From Candidatus Micrarchaeota archaeon (GTDB lineage Archaea > Micrarchaeota > Micrarchaeia > Anstonellales > Anstonellaceae), in NCBI GenBank assembly GCA_964392435.1, contig CAYMOY010000002.1, forward strand, positions 116,479-180,478: a stretch of 64,000 nucleotides of DNA, read 5' to 3'. Below are positions 1,108-43,054 of this stretch, one piece after another. Positions within the stretch are counted from its first letter, which is position 1; every line of letters begins with the position of its first letter. Below the pieces are notes generated by a model that worked only from the letters and a program-made list of their open reading frames with translations, had not been told where the DNA came from and did no database searches. Both the position numbers and the translations under genes were made by a program.

Positions 1108-1402
1108 GTCCCATGCTAATCTTGTGAAATTTAAAAAGAGTGGCTCTTGCCCCAATTATCTGGCAAGCGAGGCTTGCGCTATTCAAAATCAATTGTGTCA
1201 GCAGCAATGCGCCTTCCCGCGGAGACCGCAGTACAAACAACATCGTGAGGGGGCTTAACTTCCGAGTTCGGAATGGGTTCGGGTGTTTCCCCCCTCCTAT
1301 GACCGCTGACGGCTCTCAATGTGGGGGCAAGCCTTTTTAACCATTTCTGCGCAGATTGAATGCTACTTATCCATAAACTACAACATATACGGATGAGATT
1401 CC

Positions 1403-31696: not shown

Positions 31697-32902
31697 ATGG
31701 ACGAGAGCACCAAGCTCAAATACGAACTGAAAAAACAGCTTGCCCGCCTTCGGGAGCTCAAAGGCAGTGGAACCGAGCTGATTTCGGTCTATATACCCTC
31801 CAGACAGCCAGTGCACGAGATGTCCAACAAGCTGCGCGAAGAGGCAGGGCAGGCGACCAACATCAAAAGCAAGAGCACGCGAAAGAACGTGGGGGACGCA
31901 CTGGAAAGGATAATACACCACCTCAAGGCATACGGCAACCAGGCGCCCCAGTCCGGGGTAGCCATATTCTGCGGCAATGTTTCAGACAATCCGGCAAAGA
32001 CTGACATTGAGATTTTCACGGTTTTCCCACCGGAACCGATAGCTGTTTCGCTTTACAGGTGCGATTCGCGCTTTTTCCTTGAGCCCCTGGAAAGGATACT
32101 GGCAACCACGGACAGCTATGGGATTGTGGTGATGGACGGGCGCGAATGCACCCTTGCGGAATTGCGGGGCACCACGACCAGGATTCTTTCGCGCATACGC
32201 TCAATGGCGCACGCAAAAATGAGGAAGGGAGGGCAATCGGCCAGGCGCATCGAGAGGATAATCGAAGAGTCCATTGAATACTATTACAAGCACGTGGGAG
32301 AGCACATGGACAGGTATTTTGTCAACACGGTCAAGGGTGTCATAATAGGAGGGCCCGGGCCTGCCAAGGAGGACTTCGCAAAGATGTCGCCTTTCAACTA
32401 CCAGATAAAGGTGCTGGGTGTGGTGGACACCGGCTACACTGACGAGTACGGGATTCGCGAGGTGGTGGCAAAAAGCGGAGACATACTCTCCGAGCAGGCG
32501 GCCGTCAAGGAGCGGATAATCGTTGAGAGGTTCATAAAGGAAGTGGTGTCCAGCGGCCTTGCCACATATGGGGAAGCCGAAGTTAGAAAGGCGATTGAAA
32601 CCAAGCAGGCTTCGCAGCTTCTGGTTTCAGAAGGCATGCAGTTCAAGCGCGCCAAGCTTGTTGACACCACCACTGGGGAAACGCAATATGTCACCAGCCG
32701 CAGCCCCTTTGATTTGGAGGAGAAGATAAAGGCGATTGGCGGCACGGTCAAGGTGGAGTCCGAGCAGCCGCTAATAGACGATTTGATAGAGCTTGCGGAA
32801 AAGATGAATGTGGAGGTCGTGGTTATTTCACCTGACACAGCAGAGGGCGCGCAGTTTTTGGGCTCTTTTTACGGCATCGGGGCATTCCTCAGATACAAAT
32901 AG
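31697..32902 (+). CDS. prf1: peptide chain release factor aRF1
   Basis: NIKSKSTRKNV (NIKS), GGQSARR (GGQ), length 401 aa. Confidence 0.9.
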   Translation: MDESTKLKYELKKQLARLRELKGSGTELISVYIPSRQPVHEMSNKLREEAGQATNIKSKSTRKNVGDALERIIHHLKAYGNQAPQSGVAIFCGNVSDNPAKTDIEIFTVFPPEPIAVSLYRCDSRFFLEPLERILATTDSYGIVVMDGRECTLAELRGTTTRILSRIRSMAHAKMRKGGQSARRIERIIEESIEYYYKHVGEHMDRYFVNTVKGVIIGGPGPAKEDFAKMSPFNYQIKVLGVVDTGYTDEYGIREVVAKSGDILSEQAAVKERIIVERFIKEVVSSGLATYGEAEVRKAIETKQASQLLVSEGMQFKRAKLVDTTTGETQYVTSRSPFDLEEKIKAIGGTVKVESEQPLIDDLIELAEKMNVEVVVISPDTAEGAQFLGSFYGIGAFLRYK

Positions 32903-36582: not shown

Positions 36583-36668
36583 GCTGGGGTCGCATAACCC
36601 GGTATTGCGGCAGGTTGCTAACCTGTTGGGGGGAAACCTCCGTGCGAGTTCAAATCTCGCCCCCGGCA
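36583..36668 (+). tRNA. tRNA-Ser (anticodon GCU), type II with long variable arm; CCA not encoded
   Basis: Hand-folded. Acceptor GCTGGGG/CCCCGGC (one G-U); 3-bp D stem GCA/TGC; anticodon stem GCAGG/CCTGT, loop TTGCTAA; variable stem GGGGG-AAA-CCTCC; T arm GCGAG-TTCAAAT-CTCGC. Confidence 0.85.
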
Positions 36669-36785
36669 TATTCAACAGGATATGCGAGGCATTGGGGCAG
36701 CAGCTCCAATCGTCCCCGGCATATTCAGCAGGATATGCGGGGCAGCGGAACCGCAGTTCTGCTTGTCCCGGCATAGGCTGAATGG
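36661..36785 (+). repeat. three degenerate direct repeats of the tRNA-Ser 3' end plus ~25 bp
   Basis: Two full ~31-bp copies ccccggcatattca(a/g)caggatatgcg(a/g)ggca at ~52-bp spacing, and a third partial copy cccggcataggctgaat. First copy begins inside the tRNA acceptor 3' strand. Confidence 0.6.
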
Positions 36786-36823
36786 TTTTATTGGTTTAGG
36801 TCAAAATGATAGAAGGTGAGAAT

Positions 36824-37156
36824 ATGCGGAACGGTTTTTTGCTATTCATATTTGTGCTGGCCCTCTCCGCAACCTCATGCGCCACTATGCTTGGCAGCGT
36901 GCAGGATGCGGTCTCCCAGCTTTGCCTCAACCTCAAAAGCCTAATTCCAGTGGTTGCGATGATGATGCTGGTGTTGGGCGGGGTAATCTATGCAGCCGGG
37001 CAGATGATGGGGGCTGAGACGCGCGCAAGGGCGAATGTGTGGGCGACTGCCTGCCTGACAGGCGCGCTGATTGCGATACTGATTGTCGTCGTGGCGCAGC
37101 CGGTGCTGCAGACAATATACGGCGACCTTGGCACCATTTCATGCGATGTGGCTTAG
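36824..37156 (+). CDS. pilin-like small secreted two-helix membrane protein, paralog 1 (VirB2/TrbC-like topology)
   Basis: Signal peptide MRNGFLLFIFVLALSATSCA; conserved core KSLIPVVAMMMLVLGGVIYAAGQMMGAETRARANVWATACLTGALIAILIVVVAQPVL; SD aggtga. Confidence 0.6.
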   Translation: MRNGFLLFIFVLALSATSCATMLGSVQDAVSQLCLNLKSLIPVVAMMMLVLGGVIYAAGQMMGAETRARANVWATACLTGALIAILIVVVAQPVLQTIYGDLGTISCDVA

Positions 37157-37202
37157 ATTTGTTTAAATTTCTTTTCTGAGAATAAGAGAAAGGAGGGATT
37201 TG

Positions 37203-37544
37203 ATGGGGAAATTGGCAGTATTGCTTGCGTTTGCGGTTGTTGGCGGCATGTTGTTTGCCACAGTGAACCCGCTTTCCAATGTTAATGAGGCTGTAAACAC
37301 ACTTTGCAAAGGCTTGAAGAGCCTGCTTCCGATTGCCGCAATGATGGCAATAGTGCTTGCCGGCGTGATTTATGCTGCGGGGCAGATGATGGGCGCTGAG
37401 ACACGCGCAAGGGCGAACGTCTGGGCGACTGCCGCACTGACAGGCGCGCTGATTGCGATACTGATGGCTGTGGTTGCGCCTGCCGTTCTGGGAATGATAT
37501 ATGGCAGCAGCTGGAGCACCGGAGTAAGCAGTTGCATTGCTTGA
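37203..37544 (+). CDS. pilin-like small secreted two-helix membrane protein, paralog 2
   Basis: MGKLAVLLAFAVVGGMLFA signal; same core; SD aggaggg. Confidence 0.6.
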   Translation: MGKLAVLLAFAVVGGMLFATVNPLSNVNEAVNTLCKGLKSLLPIAAMMAIVLAGVIYAAGQMMGAETRARANVWATAALTGALIAILMAVVAPAVLGMIYGSSWSTGVSSCIA

Positions 37545-37635
37545 TTTTTTTCCTCATTTTTCTTTTTTCCAAATACCCCTTAGTTTAAAATGTTTATTCT
37601 CGAATAGGCATCAACAGTACTTTAGGAGGGATTTG

Positions 37636-37959
37636 ATGGGGAAAATAACGGTATTGCTTGCGTTTGCGGTTGTTGGCGGCATGTTGTTTGCCACAACGCC
37701 TCTGGACAATGTCAATTCTGCGGTGAGCAGCCTTTGCAGTGGCTTGAAGAGCCTGCTTCCGGTTGCTGCCATGATGGCAATAGTGCTTGCAGGTGTCATC
37801 TATGCGGCAGGGCAGATGATGGGGGCTGAGACGCGCGCAAGGGCGAATGTGTGGGCTACTGCCGCGCTGACTGGTGCGCTGATTGCGATACTGATGGCTG
37901 TGGTTGCGCCTGCCGTTCTAAACACAATATACGGAACGCAAGGAACTATCCAATGCTGA
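37636..37959 (+). CDS. pilin-like small secreted two-helix membrane protein, paralog 3
   Basis: MGKITVLLAFAVVGGMLFA; near-identical core and upstream region to paralog 2; SD aggaggg. Confidence 0.6.
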   Translation: MGKITVLLAFAVVGGMLFATTPLDNVNSAVSSLCSGLKSLLPVAAMMAIVLAGVIYAAGQMMGAETRARANVWATAALTGALIAILMAVVAPAVLNTIYGTQGTIQC

Positions 37960-38038
37960 GTTTTTTTCTCATTTTTCTTTTTTCCAAATACCCCTTAGTT
38001 TAAAATGTTTGCCGGAAAATTTCCATAAGGTGATTGCG

Positions 38039-38509
38039 ATGGGATTTGCACGGTCCATTTCGGTTTTCTTGCTCGTTTTGCCCTTGGCTTTTGCATCAGG
38101 CACGCCGCTTGCTTCGGTGAATCAGGCGGTTTCCTCTCTTTGCAGCGGGCTAAACTCCCTTCTCCCGGTTGCCGCCATGATGGCAATAGTGCTTGGTGGG
38201 GTCATCTATGCTGCCGGGCAGATGATGGGGGCTGAGACGCGCGCACGCGCCAATGTATGGGCAACCGCCTGCCTGACAGGGGCAATAATCGCAATAATGA
38301 TTGCAGTTGTCGGGCCGGCTGTTCTCAAGATGATGTATGGGCAGGAGCTAGCGTGCGGGGGCAGCAGCCAACCGCCCACAGGCTGCCAGGCAGGATATTC
38401 GGCCTGCGGAACAGGGGGGCTTTGCTGCGGCGGGTCAACCCCGAAATGCTGCAACCCATCTAGCGCCCCAAGCTGTGCGAGTAATAACGCACTGTGCACC
38501 ATATCTTGA
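38039..38509 (+). CDS. pilin-like paralog 4 with Cys/Gly/Ser-rich C-terminal extension
   Basis: MGFARSISVFLLVLPLAFASG signal; same core; tail GGSSQPPTGCQAGYSACGTGGLCCGGSTPKCCNPSSAPSCASNNALC. Confidence 0.55.
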   Translation: MGFARSISVFLLVLPLAFASGTPLASVNQAVSSLCSGLNSLLPVAAMMAIVLGGVIYAAGQMMGAETRARANVWATACLTGAIIAIMIAVVGPAVLKMMYGQELACGGSSQPPTGCQAGYSACGTGGLCCGGSTPKCCNPSSAPSCASNNALCTIS

Positions 38510-39416: not shown

Positions 39417-40031
39417 TTGATGGAAGAATACAGGCTGCCTGATTTGCCTTATGCATACGACGCGCTGGAGCCCTATATTGACGAGGCCACCATGAGGCTG
39501 CACCACGACAAGCACCACAAGACATATGTGGACAAGTTCAACGCCGCCCTTGCAACAGTGCCGGAGTTCCGCGCAAAGGTGGCAAGCGCCGAAGATGCGC
39601 TGCGCGACCTTTCCGCCGTGCCTGAAAGCATCAGGGGCGCGGTGCGAAATCATGGGGGAGGGGCAGTGAACCATTCGTTTTTCTGGAGCGGCATGACAAG
39701 CGAAAGGCAGTCTCCAAGCGGAAAGCTTGCCGAGGCGCTTTCCAGGAAATTCGGAAGCGTAGACAAGTTCGAGGAGGCGTTCTCCGCTGCCGCGGCAGGC
39801 GTGTTCGGCAGCGGCTGGTGCTGGCTTGTCCTGAACGGAAGAGAGATGGAAATAATGACCACTCAAAACCAGGACAGCCCGCTCTCTGTTGGCAAGATGC
39901 CGCTCCTCACCTTGGATGTTTGGGAACACGCATATTATAAAAAATATGGCCCAGCCAGGGTTGAATACATCAAGAACTGGTGGAATATAGTAAATTGGCA
40001 GAAAGTCGAGGAGAATTATAAGCTACGCTAA
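39417..40031 (+). CDS. sod: Fe/Mn superoxide dismutase
   Basis: LPDLPYAYDALEPYIDEATMRLHHDKHHKTYV ... DVWEHAYY. Confidence 0.85.
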   Translation: MMEEYRLPDLPYAYDALEPYIDEATMRLHHDKHHKTYVDKFNAALATVPEFRAKVASAEDALRDLSAVPESIRGAVRNHGGGAVNHSFFWSGMTSERQSPSGKLAEALSRKFGSVDKFEEAFSAAAAGVFGSGWCWLVLNGREMEIMTTQNQDSPLSVGKMPLLTLDVWEHAYYKKYGPARVEYIKNWWNIVNWQKVEENYKLR

Positions 40032-40847
40032 AGAAGTAGCCGCATTCAAACTAAGCCAGTTTTTCAGATATATAATTTTTTCCTCTTTTAATTTCGTAGT
40101 GCTGATATTTTCAAAGAATCTTTTTATGCATTCTTTTTTATAGACCCTCAGATGGTAAGCTCTTTTTCGATTATCGTCTTTTGGTTCCTGAATGGAATAA
40201 GCTGATATTATGCTCGCTTCATTCAGTATTTTTCTTATGGATTCTAGAAAACCATAGTTCGTATTGGTGATGTCTAGGCATATCTTCGGAGTCCTTCTTA
40301 CTTTCTCTTTTATGATTTTGACACAGCCTTCTGCATCAAAAAAACCTTCAACGAACAACAATTTTGAACGCATGTCTGTTTGTGCCAATAAATTTTCCAA
40401 ATAAACAGAATTCTCTCGCGCCTTTTTGAAAAATGAGTAAAGTTCAAAATTGTTTGACCTAACAAACCACACATTTTTACTTCGAATGATGTATGGTTTA
40501 TCTACTTTGGAAATGCATGAAGCCAGCATCTTAGAATATTTTTTTGTGAATATTCTGTCCCCCACAAGAATAACGTAATTCCTAGTTATTTTCCAATTAT
40601 AGATGCAGCCGTCGCCTAGTAAAGCGCCAAGCACATAGAAAAGCTCTGGTTTTATCATGATTTTTCCTTTGCGCCCGTTGGGTAGGTAATCTCCCTTATA
40701 CCAACAATAAATAGTCCCTCTCGGCAAGGAAAATTTATTATGGACGATATTAACGATATCTCTTCGGGGGACGTTTTCTGCTTTGAGCTTTTCGAAAAGA
40801 GCAAATGCCCGAAGCCTAACTGTGTGATTTGTCCGTATGCCCACCAT
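40023..40847 (-). CDS. LAGLIDADG homing endonuclease (double-motif), AT-rich foreign gene
   Basis: LGALLGDGCIY (motif 1) and FVEGFFDAEGCV (motif 2). Local GC visibly ~35% vs ~58% surroundings. In frame with, and 15 nt downstream of, the truncated integrase ORF. Confidence 0.75.
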   Translation of the reverse strand: MVGIRTNHTVRLRAFALFEKLKAENVPRRDIVNIVHNKFSLPRGTIYCWYKGDYLPNGRKGKIMIKPELFYVLGALLGDGCIYNWKITRNYVILVGDRIFTKKYSKMLASCISKVDKPYIIRSKNVWFVRSNNFELYSFFKKARENSVYLENLLAQTDMRSKLLFVEGFFDAEGCVKIIKEKVRRTPKICLDITNTNYGFLESIRKILNEASIISAYSIQEPKDDNRKRAYHLRVYKKECIKRFFENISTTKLKEEKIIYLKNWLSLNAATSLA

Positions 40848-40862
40848 GTAGATAACTGAATT

Positions 40863-41444
40863 TCAGCTCTTTATATGCCATCTTTGAGTAGGATGCCAGT
40901 GGAACTTGAGCTTGAGGTATAGCAATTCACCTATTCTGCAGCCTGACTCGTATAATGCCAAAATAAGCGCCTTGTCGCGCGGATTAGTGGTCGAGTTGGC
41001 GAGCTTTTGGGCTTCCTCAACGGTCAGCAATTCCTCGGGTAGCTCGTGCTTCTCGTTTTTCAACCTTGGCTTGAGCCACTTTATCACGGCTGGAAATTCC
41101 TCATCCTTTCCGAAAAGCCATTTGTAGAACATCTTGAGCACGATTTTGAAATCGTAGCGTGTGTATTCGGCATAGTTTTTGGAGTCAATGTCGGTAACCA
41201 GCCGAATGAGGTCTGTCTTTGTCGCCTTTGAAAAATCCTTGTTGAGCCACTGCGCAAGCAAGCAGACACAATACATGCACTTGACAACGCGGAGCTTGCC
41301 AGAGCCTTTCGCCAGTCTCATCAGTGCGAAGTTTTCAATCTGTGTTTTGGCTTTCGTAGGCAAGGCGGAGGCCTTCAATATTCCAAGCGCCTTCTCAAAG
41401 TCAGTTTGAGATTTATACATAACGTAATCGTTCATAGGGGTCAC
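40863..41444 (-). pseudogene. truncated tyrosine-integrase paralog (N-terminal ~180 aa only)
   Basis: First ~180 aa nearly identical to the intact integrase at 52748..53956. Diverges after LYLKLK into FHWHPTQRWHIKS-stop; catalytic R/H-x-x-R/Y domain missing. Confidence 0.7.
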
Positions 41445-41616: not shown

Positions 41617-42223
41617 TCAAGCTTTTTTGTCCTTCCTCAGGCACATGAACCAGTCAAGGCAGTATTTCCCCTCCTCCTTCTTTTCCATTCTTTCCTTTGC
41701 AACTCCGCACGAGCCAGGGGTGGGGATTATGACGTCGTCGCCAGGATACCAGTTGGCAGGCGTTGCTATCCCTTCGCTGTCAGATTTCTGCATGGCTACG
41801 AGCAGGCGCTTGATTTCCTCCATGTTCCTTCCGTTGGAAAGTGGGTAGTAAAGTATTGCCCTTACCTTGGCTTTCGCATCAATTATGAAAACCGCCCTCA
41901 CTGCCTGCGTGTTTGAGGCATTGGGCTGCACCATGCCAAACTTTTTTGCGACCTCCATCCTTATGCCCTCAATCAGAGGGAACTTGACCTCGACATTCTT
42001 CATTCCCTTGTACTCGATCTTTTCCTTGATTGTCCTAAGCCACGCGATGTGTGCATATATGCTGTCAATCGACAGCCCGATGAGCTCGCAGTTAAGGCTC
42101 CGCAAATCATCCTGCATGGATGCAAAGGTCATGAACTCGGTTGTGCAGACCGGTGTAAAGTCTGCCGGGTGGCTGAAGAGTATTACCCATTTGCCGGTGT
42201 AGTCTTCCGGGAATTTAAGAATG
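41617..42223 (-). pseudogene. peroxiredoxin (1-Cys/Prx6-like archaeal Prx), C-terminal part, split by IS insertion
   Basis: Reading upstream of the track ORF in frame gives ...[44 protein letters not shown]... (peroxidatic-Cys region). N-terminal 20 codons lie at 42900..42958 on the other side of the IS. Confidence 0.7.
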
Positions 42224-42899
42224 TTGCCTAGTGCTCGCTAAATCCAGCGGGCGTAGCCCGCGAACCCGCCTTCAGGCGGGGGATACAGCGAGCACATTCT
42301 TCTTTTTGACCTGAAAAATAAGTTCCAATAGCGGCGCGGCGGCGCTTTCGCGCCGCCCATGTTTGGCCGACTATTGGAGTTGTAGACTATGACCAGCGAA
42401 AGCTTTGTGAGAAGACAGCACAGCGTAGGAATAAATGCCTTTCACTTTGAGTGGTGCCCAAAGTACAGGTACAAGGTGCTTGGGGGTAACTGGCTGAGGC
42501 GTATTCTGACTGAAAGTCTTTGCCAGACTGCCAAAAAATACGGCATTCAGATTTTTGCAATGGAAATCGCCCTTGACCACCTGCACATGTTCGTAAACCT
42601 GCCTGGCTTGCTTGGTCCAAGCCAAGCAATCAATCTCTTCAAGGGCAGGAGCGCCAAGGCAATATTCGAAAACTGCCCATCATTCAGGAAAACCTATAGG
42701 GCTGGGCACTTCTGGAGTCGTGGCAGTTTCTACAGGTCAGTTAGCAACGTCGGGGCTGACACGATTTACAGGTACATAACAGAACACAGAAGCAAGGAGA
42801 TTACAGAATCAGTTGTTGCGGTGGAAAAGGAGTTTGGGCAGATGAATCTGGTGTCCTTCATGTAGTCGAAAACTGCCCCCTTCAGGGGGCAGATATTTA
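42224..42899 (+). mobile_element. IS200/IS605-family insertion sequence (tnpA only) inserted in the peroxiredoxin gene
   Basis: Carries Y1/HUH transposase; subterminal hairpins cccgcc-ttca-ggcggg (left) and ctgccccc-ttca-gggggcag (right). Joining the flanks restores ...[14 protein letters not shown].... No target duplication evident, as expected for this family. Boundaries +/- 2 nt. Confidence 0.7.
42389..42865 (+). CDS. tnpA: IS200-like transposase TnpA (HUH Y1)
   Basis: LDHLHMFVNL (HuH), conserved Y in C-terminal SFYRSV/YRYI region, ~158 aa typical of IS200 TnpA. Confidence 0.75.
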   Translation: MTSESFVRRQHSVGINAFHFEWCPKYRYKVLGGNWLRRILTESLCQTAKKYGIQIFAMEIALDHLHMFVNLPGLLGPSQAINLFKGRSAKAIFENCPSFRKTYRAGHFWSRGSFYRSVSNVGADTIYRYITEHRSKEITESVVAVEKEFGQMNLVSFM

Positions 42900-42958
42900 T
42901 TCTCGCCCATCGTGGTTTTGGCTGTGAAGCGTGGGGCATCGTCCCCTATCAGCGGCAT
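42900..42958 (-). pseudogene. peroxiredoxin N-terminal fragment (MPLIGDDAPRFTAKTTMGEN)
   Basis: Manual translation. Continues as read-through into the IS hairpin in track ORF 42809..42997. Confidence 0.6.
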
Positions 42959-43054
42959 GCTCGATTGCTTGTTTGCAGGTTCGTCCATCCATCTCACCTC
43001 GCAAAAGGTTGCTGCATGAACATATAAAAATGTTTATGAATAATAATTCAAAAC

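Follow-up and report, generated by a model that had tools for sequence, protein, structure and literature searches.

The IS200/IS605 family is the most abundant family of insertion sequences (IS) in archaea and is found in more than 65% of Micrarchaeota genomes (PMC13343696). The IS200 of Salmonella and the Enterobacteriaceae is a 707 bp element with a single Y1 tnpA gene, no terminal inverted repeats and no target duplication, in which the left end forms a structured inverted repeat and a second one, located in the 5′ leader, sequesters the Shine-Dalgarno sequence and represses translation (PMC4513863). The mechanistic models are IS608 of H. pylori and ISDra2 of D. radiodurans. In both, each end carries a subterminal hairpin; cleavage on the left takes place in the flank, at the target, and on the right a few nucleotides (nt) 3′ of the hairpin. 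IS608 recognises its cleavage sites by means of 4-nt guides located just 5′ of each hairpin foot (PMC3201880). Among archaea, the IS605 of Sulfolobus islandicus uses TTTAA both as its insertion site and as the functional transposon-associated motif (TAM) of TnpB, with NTTAA tolerated (PMC11043419), and a C-terminal PCNA motif has been described in archaeal IS200 transposases that binds Methanosarcina PCNA in vitro (PMC3971601). Here we describe an element of this group in a 64,000-nucleotide stretch (the window) of contig CAYMOY010000002.1 from Candidatus Micrarchaeota archaeon, where it occupies positions 42219..42900 on the plus strand and splits a peroxiredoxin (Prx) gene.

The element is 682 bp long (5′-GAATGTTG...GATATTTAT-3′) and carries one gene, tnpA (42389..42865, +), encoding a 158-amino-acid HUH/Y1 single-strand DNA transposase. 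The explanation that best accounts for the evidence as a whole, and which we hold with high confidence, is that this is an intact IS200-group IS of the IS200/IS605 family in a Micrarchaeota chromosome, probably still mobile, that would move by the hairpin and TTTAA mechanism of TnpA and whose insertion has knocked out the Prx gene. All the hallmarks of the IS200 group that sequence analysis can address are present: a transposase of the Y1 HUH type, hairpins placed subterminally at both ends where other elements have terminal inverted repeats, a specific target abutting the left end, and no target duplication. Elements of this group carry tnpA without tnpB and are about 600–750 bp long, and with 477 of its 682 bp taken up by tnpA the present one has no space for a second gene. 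The named best matches of the window's aRF1 gene are to Micrarchaeota/Anstonellaceae only, at 74–91% identity, and the host is therefore a Micrarchaeota archaeon.

TnpA matches both Pfam PF01797 Y1_Tnp (E 5.6e-27, 94.7 bits, cutoff 23) and NCBIfam NF033573 transpos_IS200 (101.6 bits, cutoff 55), in agreement with the original prediction, made from the DNA letters and their open reading frames (ORFs), of an IS200-type element containing tnpA only. The HUH residues H64 and H66 (H64-L-H66) and the catalytic Tyr129 are invariant across 37 aligned TnpA relatives and can be aligned with those of Sulfolobus TnpA of known structure. Among solved structures the closest are those from S. tokodaii (2EC2, E 3.6e-24) and S. 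solfataricus (2F4F, 8.9e-21), followed by the TnpA proteins of IS608 and ISDra2 (2A6M/2VHG, E about 1e-12; 2XM3, 1.5e-11), which belong to the same fold family. Compared with Sulfolobus TnpA the window protein has about 20 extra C-terminal residues, and these include QMNLVSFM (42839..42862, +), a motif resembling a PCNA-interacting protein (PIP) box, where Salmonella IS200 has a beta-clamp motif. The pattern Q-x-x-[LIMV]-x-x-[FYW] is found at the C-terminus in 34 of the 37 relatives. As the PCNA motif of archaeal IS200 transposases has already been described, a PIP-like tail is expected here and is not new. The nearest comparison is the IS200 transposase of Methanosarcina barkeri, whose C-terminal motif of the type Q-x-x-L/I-x-x-F-F binds PCNA in vitro (PMC3971601); in the present family the motif can finish in M, V, F or Y and not strictly in F, and PCNA binding is predicted.

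The boundaries of the element follow from comparison with the uninterrupted gene. The Prx gene runs along the minus strand in two halves, 41617..42218 and 42901..42988, and their rejoined product matches the Pfam families AhpC-TSA and 1-cysPrx_C. The closest intact orthologs, P0096 and P0097 (97% identical), read TTMGEIKFPEDY (GEIKF) at the junction, and exactly three residues occupy this spot in 108 of the 108 Prx homologs carrying the motif. Syntenic relatives with 87–92% DNA identity have an uninterrupted locus reading GGGAATTTAAT|TTCGCC, in longer form CCGGGAATTTAAT|TTCGCCCAT, and the ortholog contigs share their right-side gene order with the window (DUF134, AdoMet_dc, DsbD_2-like). The halves are therefore, as the original prediction proposed checking, collinear both with intact orthologs and with empty sites of the same gene order. 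An excision of 682 bp is the only one that fits. It has three in-frame placements: with 42219..42900, Glu-Ile-Lys is recovered and one synonymous change separates the site from that of the relatives; 42220..42901 gives Leu; and placements farther left give Asn. After excision of 42219..42900 the Prx protein is 229 amino acids long, which is the ortholog length, and aligns without gaps to P0097 with four differences. The empty site rebuilt in this way reads …GGGAATTTAA|TCTCGCC…, and the comparison of filled and empty sites gives the flank TTTAA|TCTCGCC with nothing repeated, so that, as had been expected, there is no target-site duplication.

The original prediction had placed the element at 42224..42899 and noted that removal of about 676 bp leaves an uninterrupted Prx frame. 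The frame is indeed open, but the product would read GENILKF, with two residues that are absent from the 108 homologs and from the 97%-identical orthologs. In addition, GAATG (42219..42223), which this placement leaves outside, is the conserved element start in seven other insertions with unrelated flanks, and at the right end position 42900 is a conserved T. That GENILKF is the native sequence is almost certainly wrong. Because the orthologs read GEIKF and not GENILKF, we take the element to be the 682 bp at 42219..42900, a change of 5 nt on the left and 1 nt on the right.

It could also be argued that the element and its mechanism are as described but that the boundaries are shifted rightwards by one base, to 42220..42901, with TTAAG as the target and TTTATT as the right end. 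In nearly all close copies TTAA is followed by G, which makes TTAAG a conserved block, and the excision is again 682 bp and in frame. With this placement, however, the codon before the insertion becomes Leu (GELKF), where the listed homolog motifs have Ile, or Met in one ortholog, and two changes from the relatives' DNA are required as opposed to the one synonymous change needed for 42219..42900. The base following ATTTAT varies even inside subfamilies and in this respect behaves like flank; a TnpB-only relative (locus L114, below) has A and not G after TTTAA; and the Sulfolobus relatives use a TTTAA site. Overall we consider the shift quite unlikely and retain 42219..42900. Besides this shifted placement, three observations count against our interpretation of the element. 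The empty sites compared come from 88–92% identical relatives and not from the same strain, so the boundary rests on parsimony and protein conservation; the 64-kb window contains no second copy or hairpin-only derivative by blastn (word size 7), tblastn or hairpin scan; and a junction of right end and left end (RE-LE) from a circle or tandem, which would read …ATATTTAT|GAATGTTG…, occurs in none of the fetched loci.

The site itself can be read from other copies. A search with TnpA gave 95 relatives at E ≤ 1e-10, most of them on short contigs, as expected because they are repeats. There are 80 genome loci, of which the closest are almost all in metagenome-assembled genomes (MAGs) labelled Micrarchaeota, and a search with the exact left-end core gave 27 additional metagenome loci. 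Related full copies are 664–687 bp long. Family members, which the original prediction had suggested searching for, are thus abundant in genomes and metagenomes though not elsewhere in the window. TTAA directly adjoins the left end of about 25 insertions whose flanks are unrelated; most of them have a T before it, at −5 (TTTAA), and the base that follows it is G (A in L114). The subfamily nearest to the window element (GAATGTTGG...) has seven different flanks in one metagenome, with TTAA abutting the left end each time. On the right, 10 of 11 copies are conserved as far as ATTTAT, L005 having ATTTAA instead, after which the base varies. Defining the cleavage site from multiple copies, as had been proposed, points to TTAA, mostly TTTAA, on the left and ATTTAT on the right. 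As judged from these flanks insertion is site-specific, 3′ of TTTAA, and we infer that the insertion site is TTTAA and that the element ends in TTTAT. In the window this target and presumptive left cleavage motif is at 42214..42218 (+), in flanking Prx DNA outside the element, and the right terminal motif TTTAT, the likely right cleavage site, is at 42896..42900 (+).

Several further comparisons were uninformative or negative. Cross-blast of all left flanks against all loci gave no second pair of filled and empty sites beyond the Prx site, and in four other insertions that interrupt ORFs (L104, L003, L112 and L005) the alternative boundaries give identical amino acids and do not discriminate. 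The left-end motif had no matches in viral contigs. A search of the element and its flanks against Rfam gave nothing relevant, with one chance snoRNA match at E 0.95. An exact-protein look-up of TnpA returned one other contig only, which carries the same insertion. Two copies are decayed or rearranged. L097 (1..250, oriented) has a normal left end that breaks off within the leader into unrelated sequence, and L009 (2319..2970) has a mutated hairpin loop, TTCGTG, and a tblastn-derived start on TAT and not ATG, suggesting an indel or frameshift.

The window copy could also be a fixed, immobile relic, or a domesticated Y1 transposase of the type associated with repetitive extragenic palindromic (REP) sequences (RayT), and not an active IS. 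It is the only copy in the window, the same insertion is present in an independent assembly (L001), abstracts describe Salmonella IS200 itself as nearly immobile, and TnpA has a weak match to REP_Tyr_transpos. Set against this, the ORF is intact, as are its HUH and Tyr residues, the two hairpins and the two terminal motifs, all of which agree with the consensus; the nearest subfamily has many insertion sites inside single metagenomes, and the Prx gene is barely decayed, at 98% to the intact ortholog. We therefore regard a relic or domesticated gene as very unlikely, and a mobile IS200-group element as the better description. The assignment as a REP-associated tyrosine transposase (RayT/TnpA-REP) was rejected, as the REP_Tyr_transpos match is 32.5 bits against a cutoff of 80 and neither REP arrays nor additional hairpins of this type occur in the window.

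Metagenome assemblies are often broken or mis-joined at repeated IS copies, and many of the related contigs end within the element, so the insertion could in principle be an assembly chimera. Both junctions are precise, though, and lie at the canonical TTTAA and ATTTAT positions of the family; the Prx halves abut into an exact ungapped ortholog; and the independent Logan assembly L001 holds the element and the right junction, with a left flank that is a 100% match to the window. A chimera has next to no probability, and we treat the insertion as genuine.

Both ends of the element carry a hairpin with a TTCA loop, as had been predicted, and each is followed by GATA 3′ of the stem. The left-end hairpin, CCCGCC-TTCA-GGCGGG (42265..42280, +), is the presumed TnpA binding site and its core is invariant in 13 aligned copies. 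The right-end hairpin, CTGCCCCC-TTCA-GGGGGCAG (42873..42892, +), ends 8 nt from the right end of the element and is preceded by a conserved GAAAA (42868..42872), a candidate guide. In ten copies all 8 bp of the right stem are kept, five of the pairs show compensatory changes and GAAAAC always stands before the stem. The palindromes had been called imperfect, but both stems are perfect. A scan of the 64-kb window for perfect hairpins of at least 6 bp with a TTCA or TTTA loop returned three, of which two are the end hairpins of the element, so their presence here is not a matter of chance.

The left hairpin had been described as lying just inside the end. It is present, but it lies 46 nt inside and is not simply subterminal, being nested in a larger structure (42231..42295, +). 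Here an outer stem is formed by GTGCTCGCT (42231..42239) and AGCGAGCAC (42287..42295), and within it are the A-rich TAAA (42239..42242), which is a candidate guide, then a mini-hairpin, and the TnpA-type hairpin. The stem of the latter continues as ATCC (42242..42245) pairing with GGAT (42281..42284) across the mini-hairpin GCGGGC-GTA-GCCCGC (42247..42261, +), which forms a bulge in its 5′ arm. The outer stem has compensatory changes in five of seven pairs (13 copies), and one left-end stem pair covaries. The mini-hairpin has compensatory variants in close subfamilies (GCGAGC/GCTCGC) and is absent from the more distant copies L008 and L099. Folded as DNA, the left 180 nt give −52.3 kcal/mol (z = −7.7 relative to shuffled sequence). 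Across all five modelled helices 96% of cells are paired, compared with 33–47% for slid controls, and the covariation score was reached by none of 500 shuffles. A further candidate helix between AAGAATG (42217..42223), which spans the left junction, and CATTCTT (42295..42301) has 74% of cells paired, a pattern that composition may drive, and a helix across the left cut site is suggestive only.

The arrangement can be compared directly with those of the known elements. The window element shares with IS608 and ISDra2 a subterminal hairpin at each end, a target in the left flank and a right cleavage site that would lie a few nt beyond the right hairpin. By analogy with IS608, the A-rich tetranucleotides 5′ of both hairpin feet (TAAA left, AAAA right) occupy the guide positions, and together with the T-rich cleavage motifs they are compatible with an IS608-type guide logic in which they would pair with the cleavage sites. 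It differs from both models in lacking tnpB, in having TTTAA rather than TTAC or TTGAT as its target, and in the left cleavage site being 23 nt from the hairpin foot with the additional covarying outer stem between them; on the right the distance from cut to hairpin foot is 8 nt, where IS608 has 10 nt. From Salmonella IS200, which it resembles in its single Y1 tnpA, its size near 700 bp, its lack of terminal inverted repeats and target duplication, and its structured left end followed by a second inverted repeat in the leader (PMC4513863), it differs in its archaeal host and in a left end that consists of a nested outer stem with two inner hairpins and is not a simple terminator hairpin. Sulfolobus/Saccharolobus IS200/IS605 elements provide the closest solved TnpA structures (2EC2, 2F4F) and share the insertion motif TTTAA (PMC11043419), but the characterised S. 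islandicus elements are IS605- or IS1341-type with tnpB and have right ends that finish differently.

Between the left end and tnpA is a leader that may control expression. An A/T-rich box, GAAAAATAAG (42313..42322, +), is matched by an A/T-rich box at the same position in all aligned copies and is a possible archaeal TATA-like promoter element for tnpA. The leader stem-loop (42325..42377, +) is formed by CCAATAG (42325..42331) pairing with CTATTGG (42371..42377) around a GC palindrome, GGCGGCGC-TTTC-GCGCCGCC (42338..42357, +), that the original prediction had correctly picked out. Folded as RNA the leader gives −36.6 kcal/mol (z = −3.5). The long-range stem has compensatory changes in four of five pairs, and the leader stem and left-end outer stem together have 10 compensatory pairs. 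A Shine-Dalgarno-like motif, GGAG (42376..42379, +), is located 9 nt upstream of the ATG and does not vary among 13 copies; the leader stem takes in its first two G (alignment pairs 125–126 with 182–183, 96% of cells). The stable stem overlapping this ribosome-binding site would probably hold transposase translation low. We know of no art200-type antisense RNA or Hfq for the window element.

Transposition could then proceed by analogy with IS608 and ISDra2. A TnpA dimer would bind both TTCA-loop hairpins on the single-stranded top strand and cut 3′ of the flanking TTTAA on the left and 3′ of the terminal TTTAT on the right. The element would be excised as a single-stranded circle and the donor resealed, and the circle would re-insert 3′ of another TTTAA in single-stranded DNA without target duplication. 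TnpA is probably held at replication forks by its C-terminal PIP-like motif, through PCNA. The present copy landed between bases 1 and 2 of Prx codon 30, in the orientation opposite to the gene.

Two other loci in the collection begin with a left end of the same family and continue with a TnpB gene instead of tnpA. L114 (980..1464, oriented; HTH_OrfB_IS605) keeps the outer stem, the mini-hairpin and the TTCA hairpin, while L099 (1290..2296, oriented; OrfB_IS605) matches in the hairpin core only. These are IS1341-type elements that share the left end and TTTAA flank of the IS200 element, and a shared left end in TnpB-only elements fits the known service of TnpA to partner elements in trans. It is possible to go further and propose jointly that the left end of the Micrarchaeota IS200 lineage is an architecture undescribed for IS608 and ISDra2, with the outer stem and cut-site helix acting as a cis-acting DNA “clamp” that presents TTTAA, and that TnpA-only elements are trans-acting mobilisers of RNA-guided TnpB elements in DPANN archaea. 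We consider this combination unlikely.

The interrupted Prx gene is of the 1-Cys type. The 5′ fragment (42901..42988, −) contains codons 1–29 (MDEPANKQSSMPLIGDDAPRFTAKTTMGE) and the first base of Ile30, and runs into the element before reaching a stop. The 3′ fragment (41617..42218, −) contains the remainder of Ile30 to the stop, with the PVCTTE peroxidatic-Cys motif and the 1-cysPrx_C domain. The insertion point is upstream of the peroxidatic Cys, and the 3′ fragment has no in-frame start upstream of this residue, the first being downstream of it. Because the start codon is separated from the catalytic Cys the Prx gene is inactive, in line with the earlier view that it is split and inactivated. 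The disrupted Prx remains 98% identical in protein sequence to an intact ortholog while the DNA of the locus has diverged by 8–12%, and the gene was therefore under purifying selection until recently; the limited decay points to a recent insertion. Two of the four differences fall at conserved positions. Codon 114 is Gly in the window (D114G, FPLIE-D) and Asp in 117 of 117 homologs, and codon 187 is Tyr (Q187Y, TPANW-Q-PG), where Gln is found in 110 and Tyr in none of 118 homologs. These changes may reflect relaxed constraint or early decay after inactivation, a weak signal.

An island containing Prx, as had been suggested, is not established: in relatives the gene keeps a conserved order with its right-hand neighbours. 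Only the segment on the other side of Prx (40.0–41.6 kb) looks foreign. Directly downstream of the Prx stop is a low-GC segment (40023..41444, −; 0.43 compared with 0.52–0.56), in which a tyrosine-recombinase-like ORF is truncated to its N-terminal part (...YESGCRIGELLYLKLK and a stop codon), with the catalytic C-terminal half missing, followed in the same frame by a LAGLIDADG homing-endonuclease ORF. Similarity to the empty-site relatives ends at about 41559; the contigs of the relatives run for only about 60–290 nt beyond the Prx stop codon, and no other part of the window resembles their tails. The contigs L084, L082 and L085, with uninterrupted Prx, end about 200–290 nt past the gene. By eye, with no tool confirmation, the last ~110 nt of L084 (~1170..1281) on the reverse strand resemble the C-terminus of an rve-type (DDE) transposase (...EYNRTPHSSLKYKTPLEVF...). 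If this is true, the spot downstream of Prx would host different mobile elements in different lineages.

Further away in the window, a 53-nt tandem duplication with 77% identity (36657..36762) starts with the last 12 nt of tRNA-Ser(gct) (36583..36668) and looks like the att-type scar of an integrase event. The window also contains four tandem paralogous units of about 400 bp (36806..38509; 71–85% identity), each with a small ORF and none with a Pfam match; at least the two 5′ ends shown encode a hydrophobic N-terminus, and the small proteins of this tandem family may be secreted or membrane-bound. The window copy of aRF1 (31697..32902), at 401 amino acids, is free of inteins, and several Micrarchaeota-type homologs of 553–627 amino acids contain the intein domain PF14890.

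The original prediction was correct in its essentials, and the element is an ordinary addition to the known IS200 group, to which it contributes its 682-bp boundaries, its TTTAA site and its nested left end. This is mainly an annotation result, namely the true boundaries of the element and its target motif TTTAA, and the element accounts for the appearance of the peroxiredoxin in two pieces. Micrarchaeota, where IS200/IS605 elements are common but uncharacterised, also gain a documented IS200 lineage that is apparently active. The approximately 25 insertion sites and the covarying ends are a starting point for asking how archaeal Y1 transposases choose their sites, and the same data bear on which TnpA mobilises the TnpB-only elements that share its ends. 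For the host, the loss of Prx from a small DPANN genome may have a bearing on oxygen tolerance.

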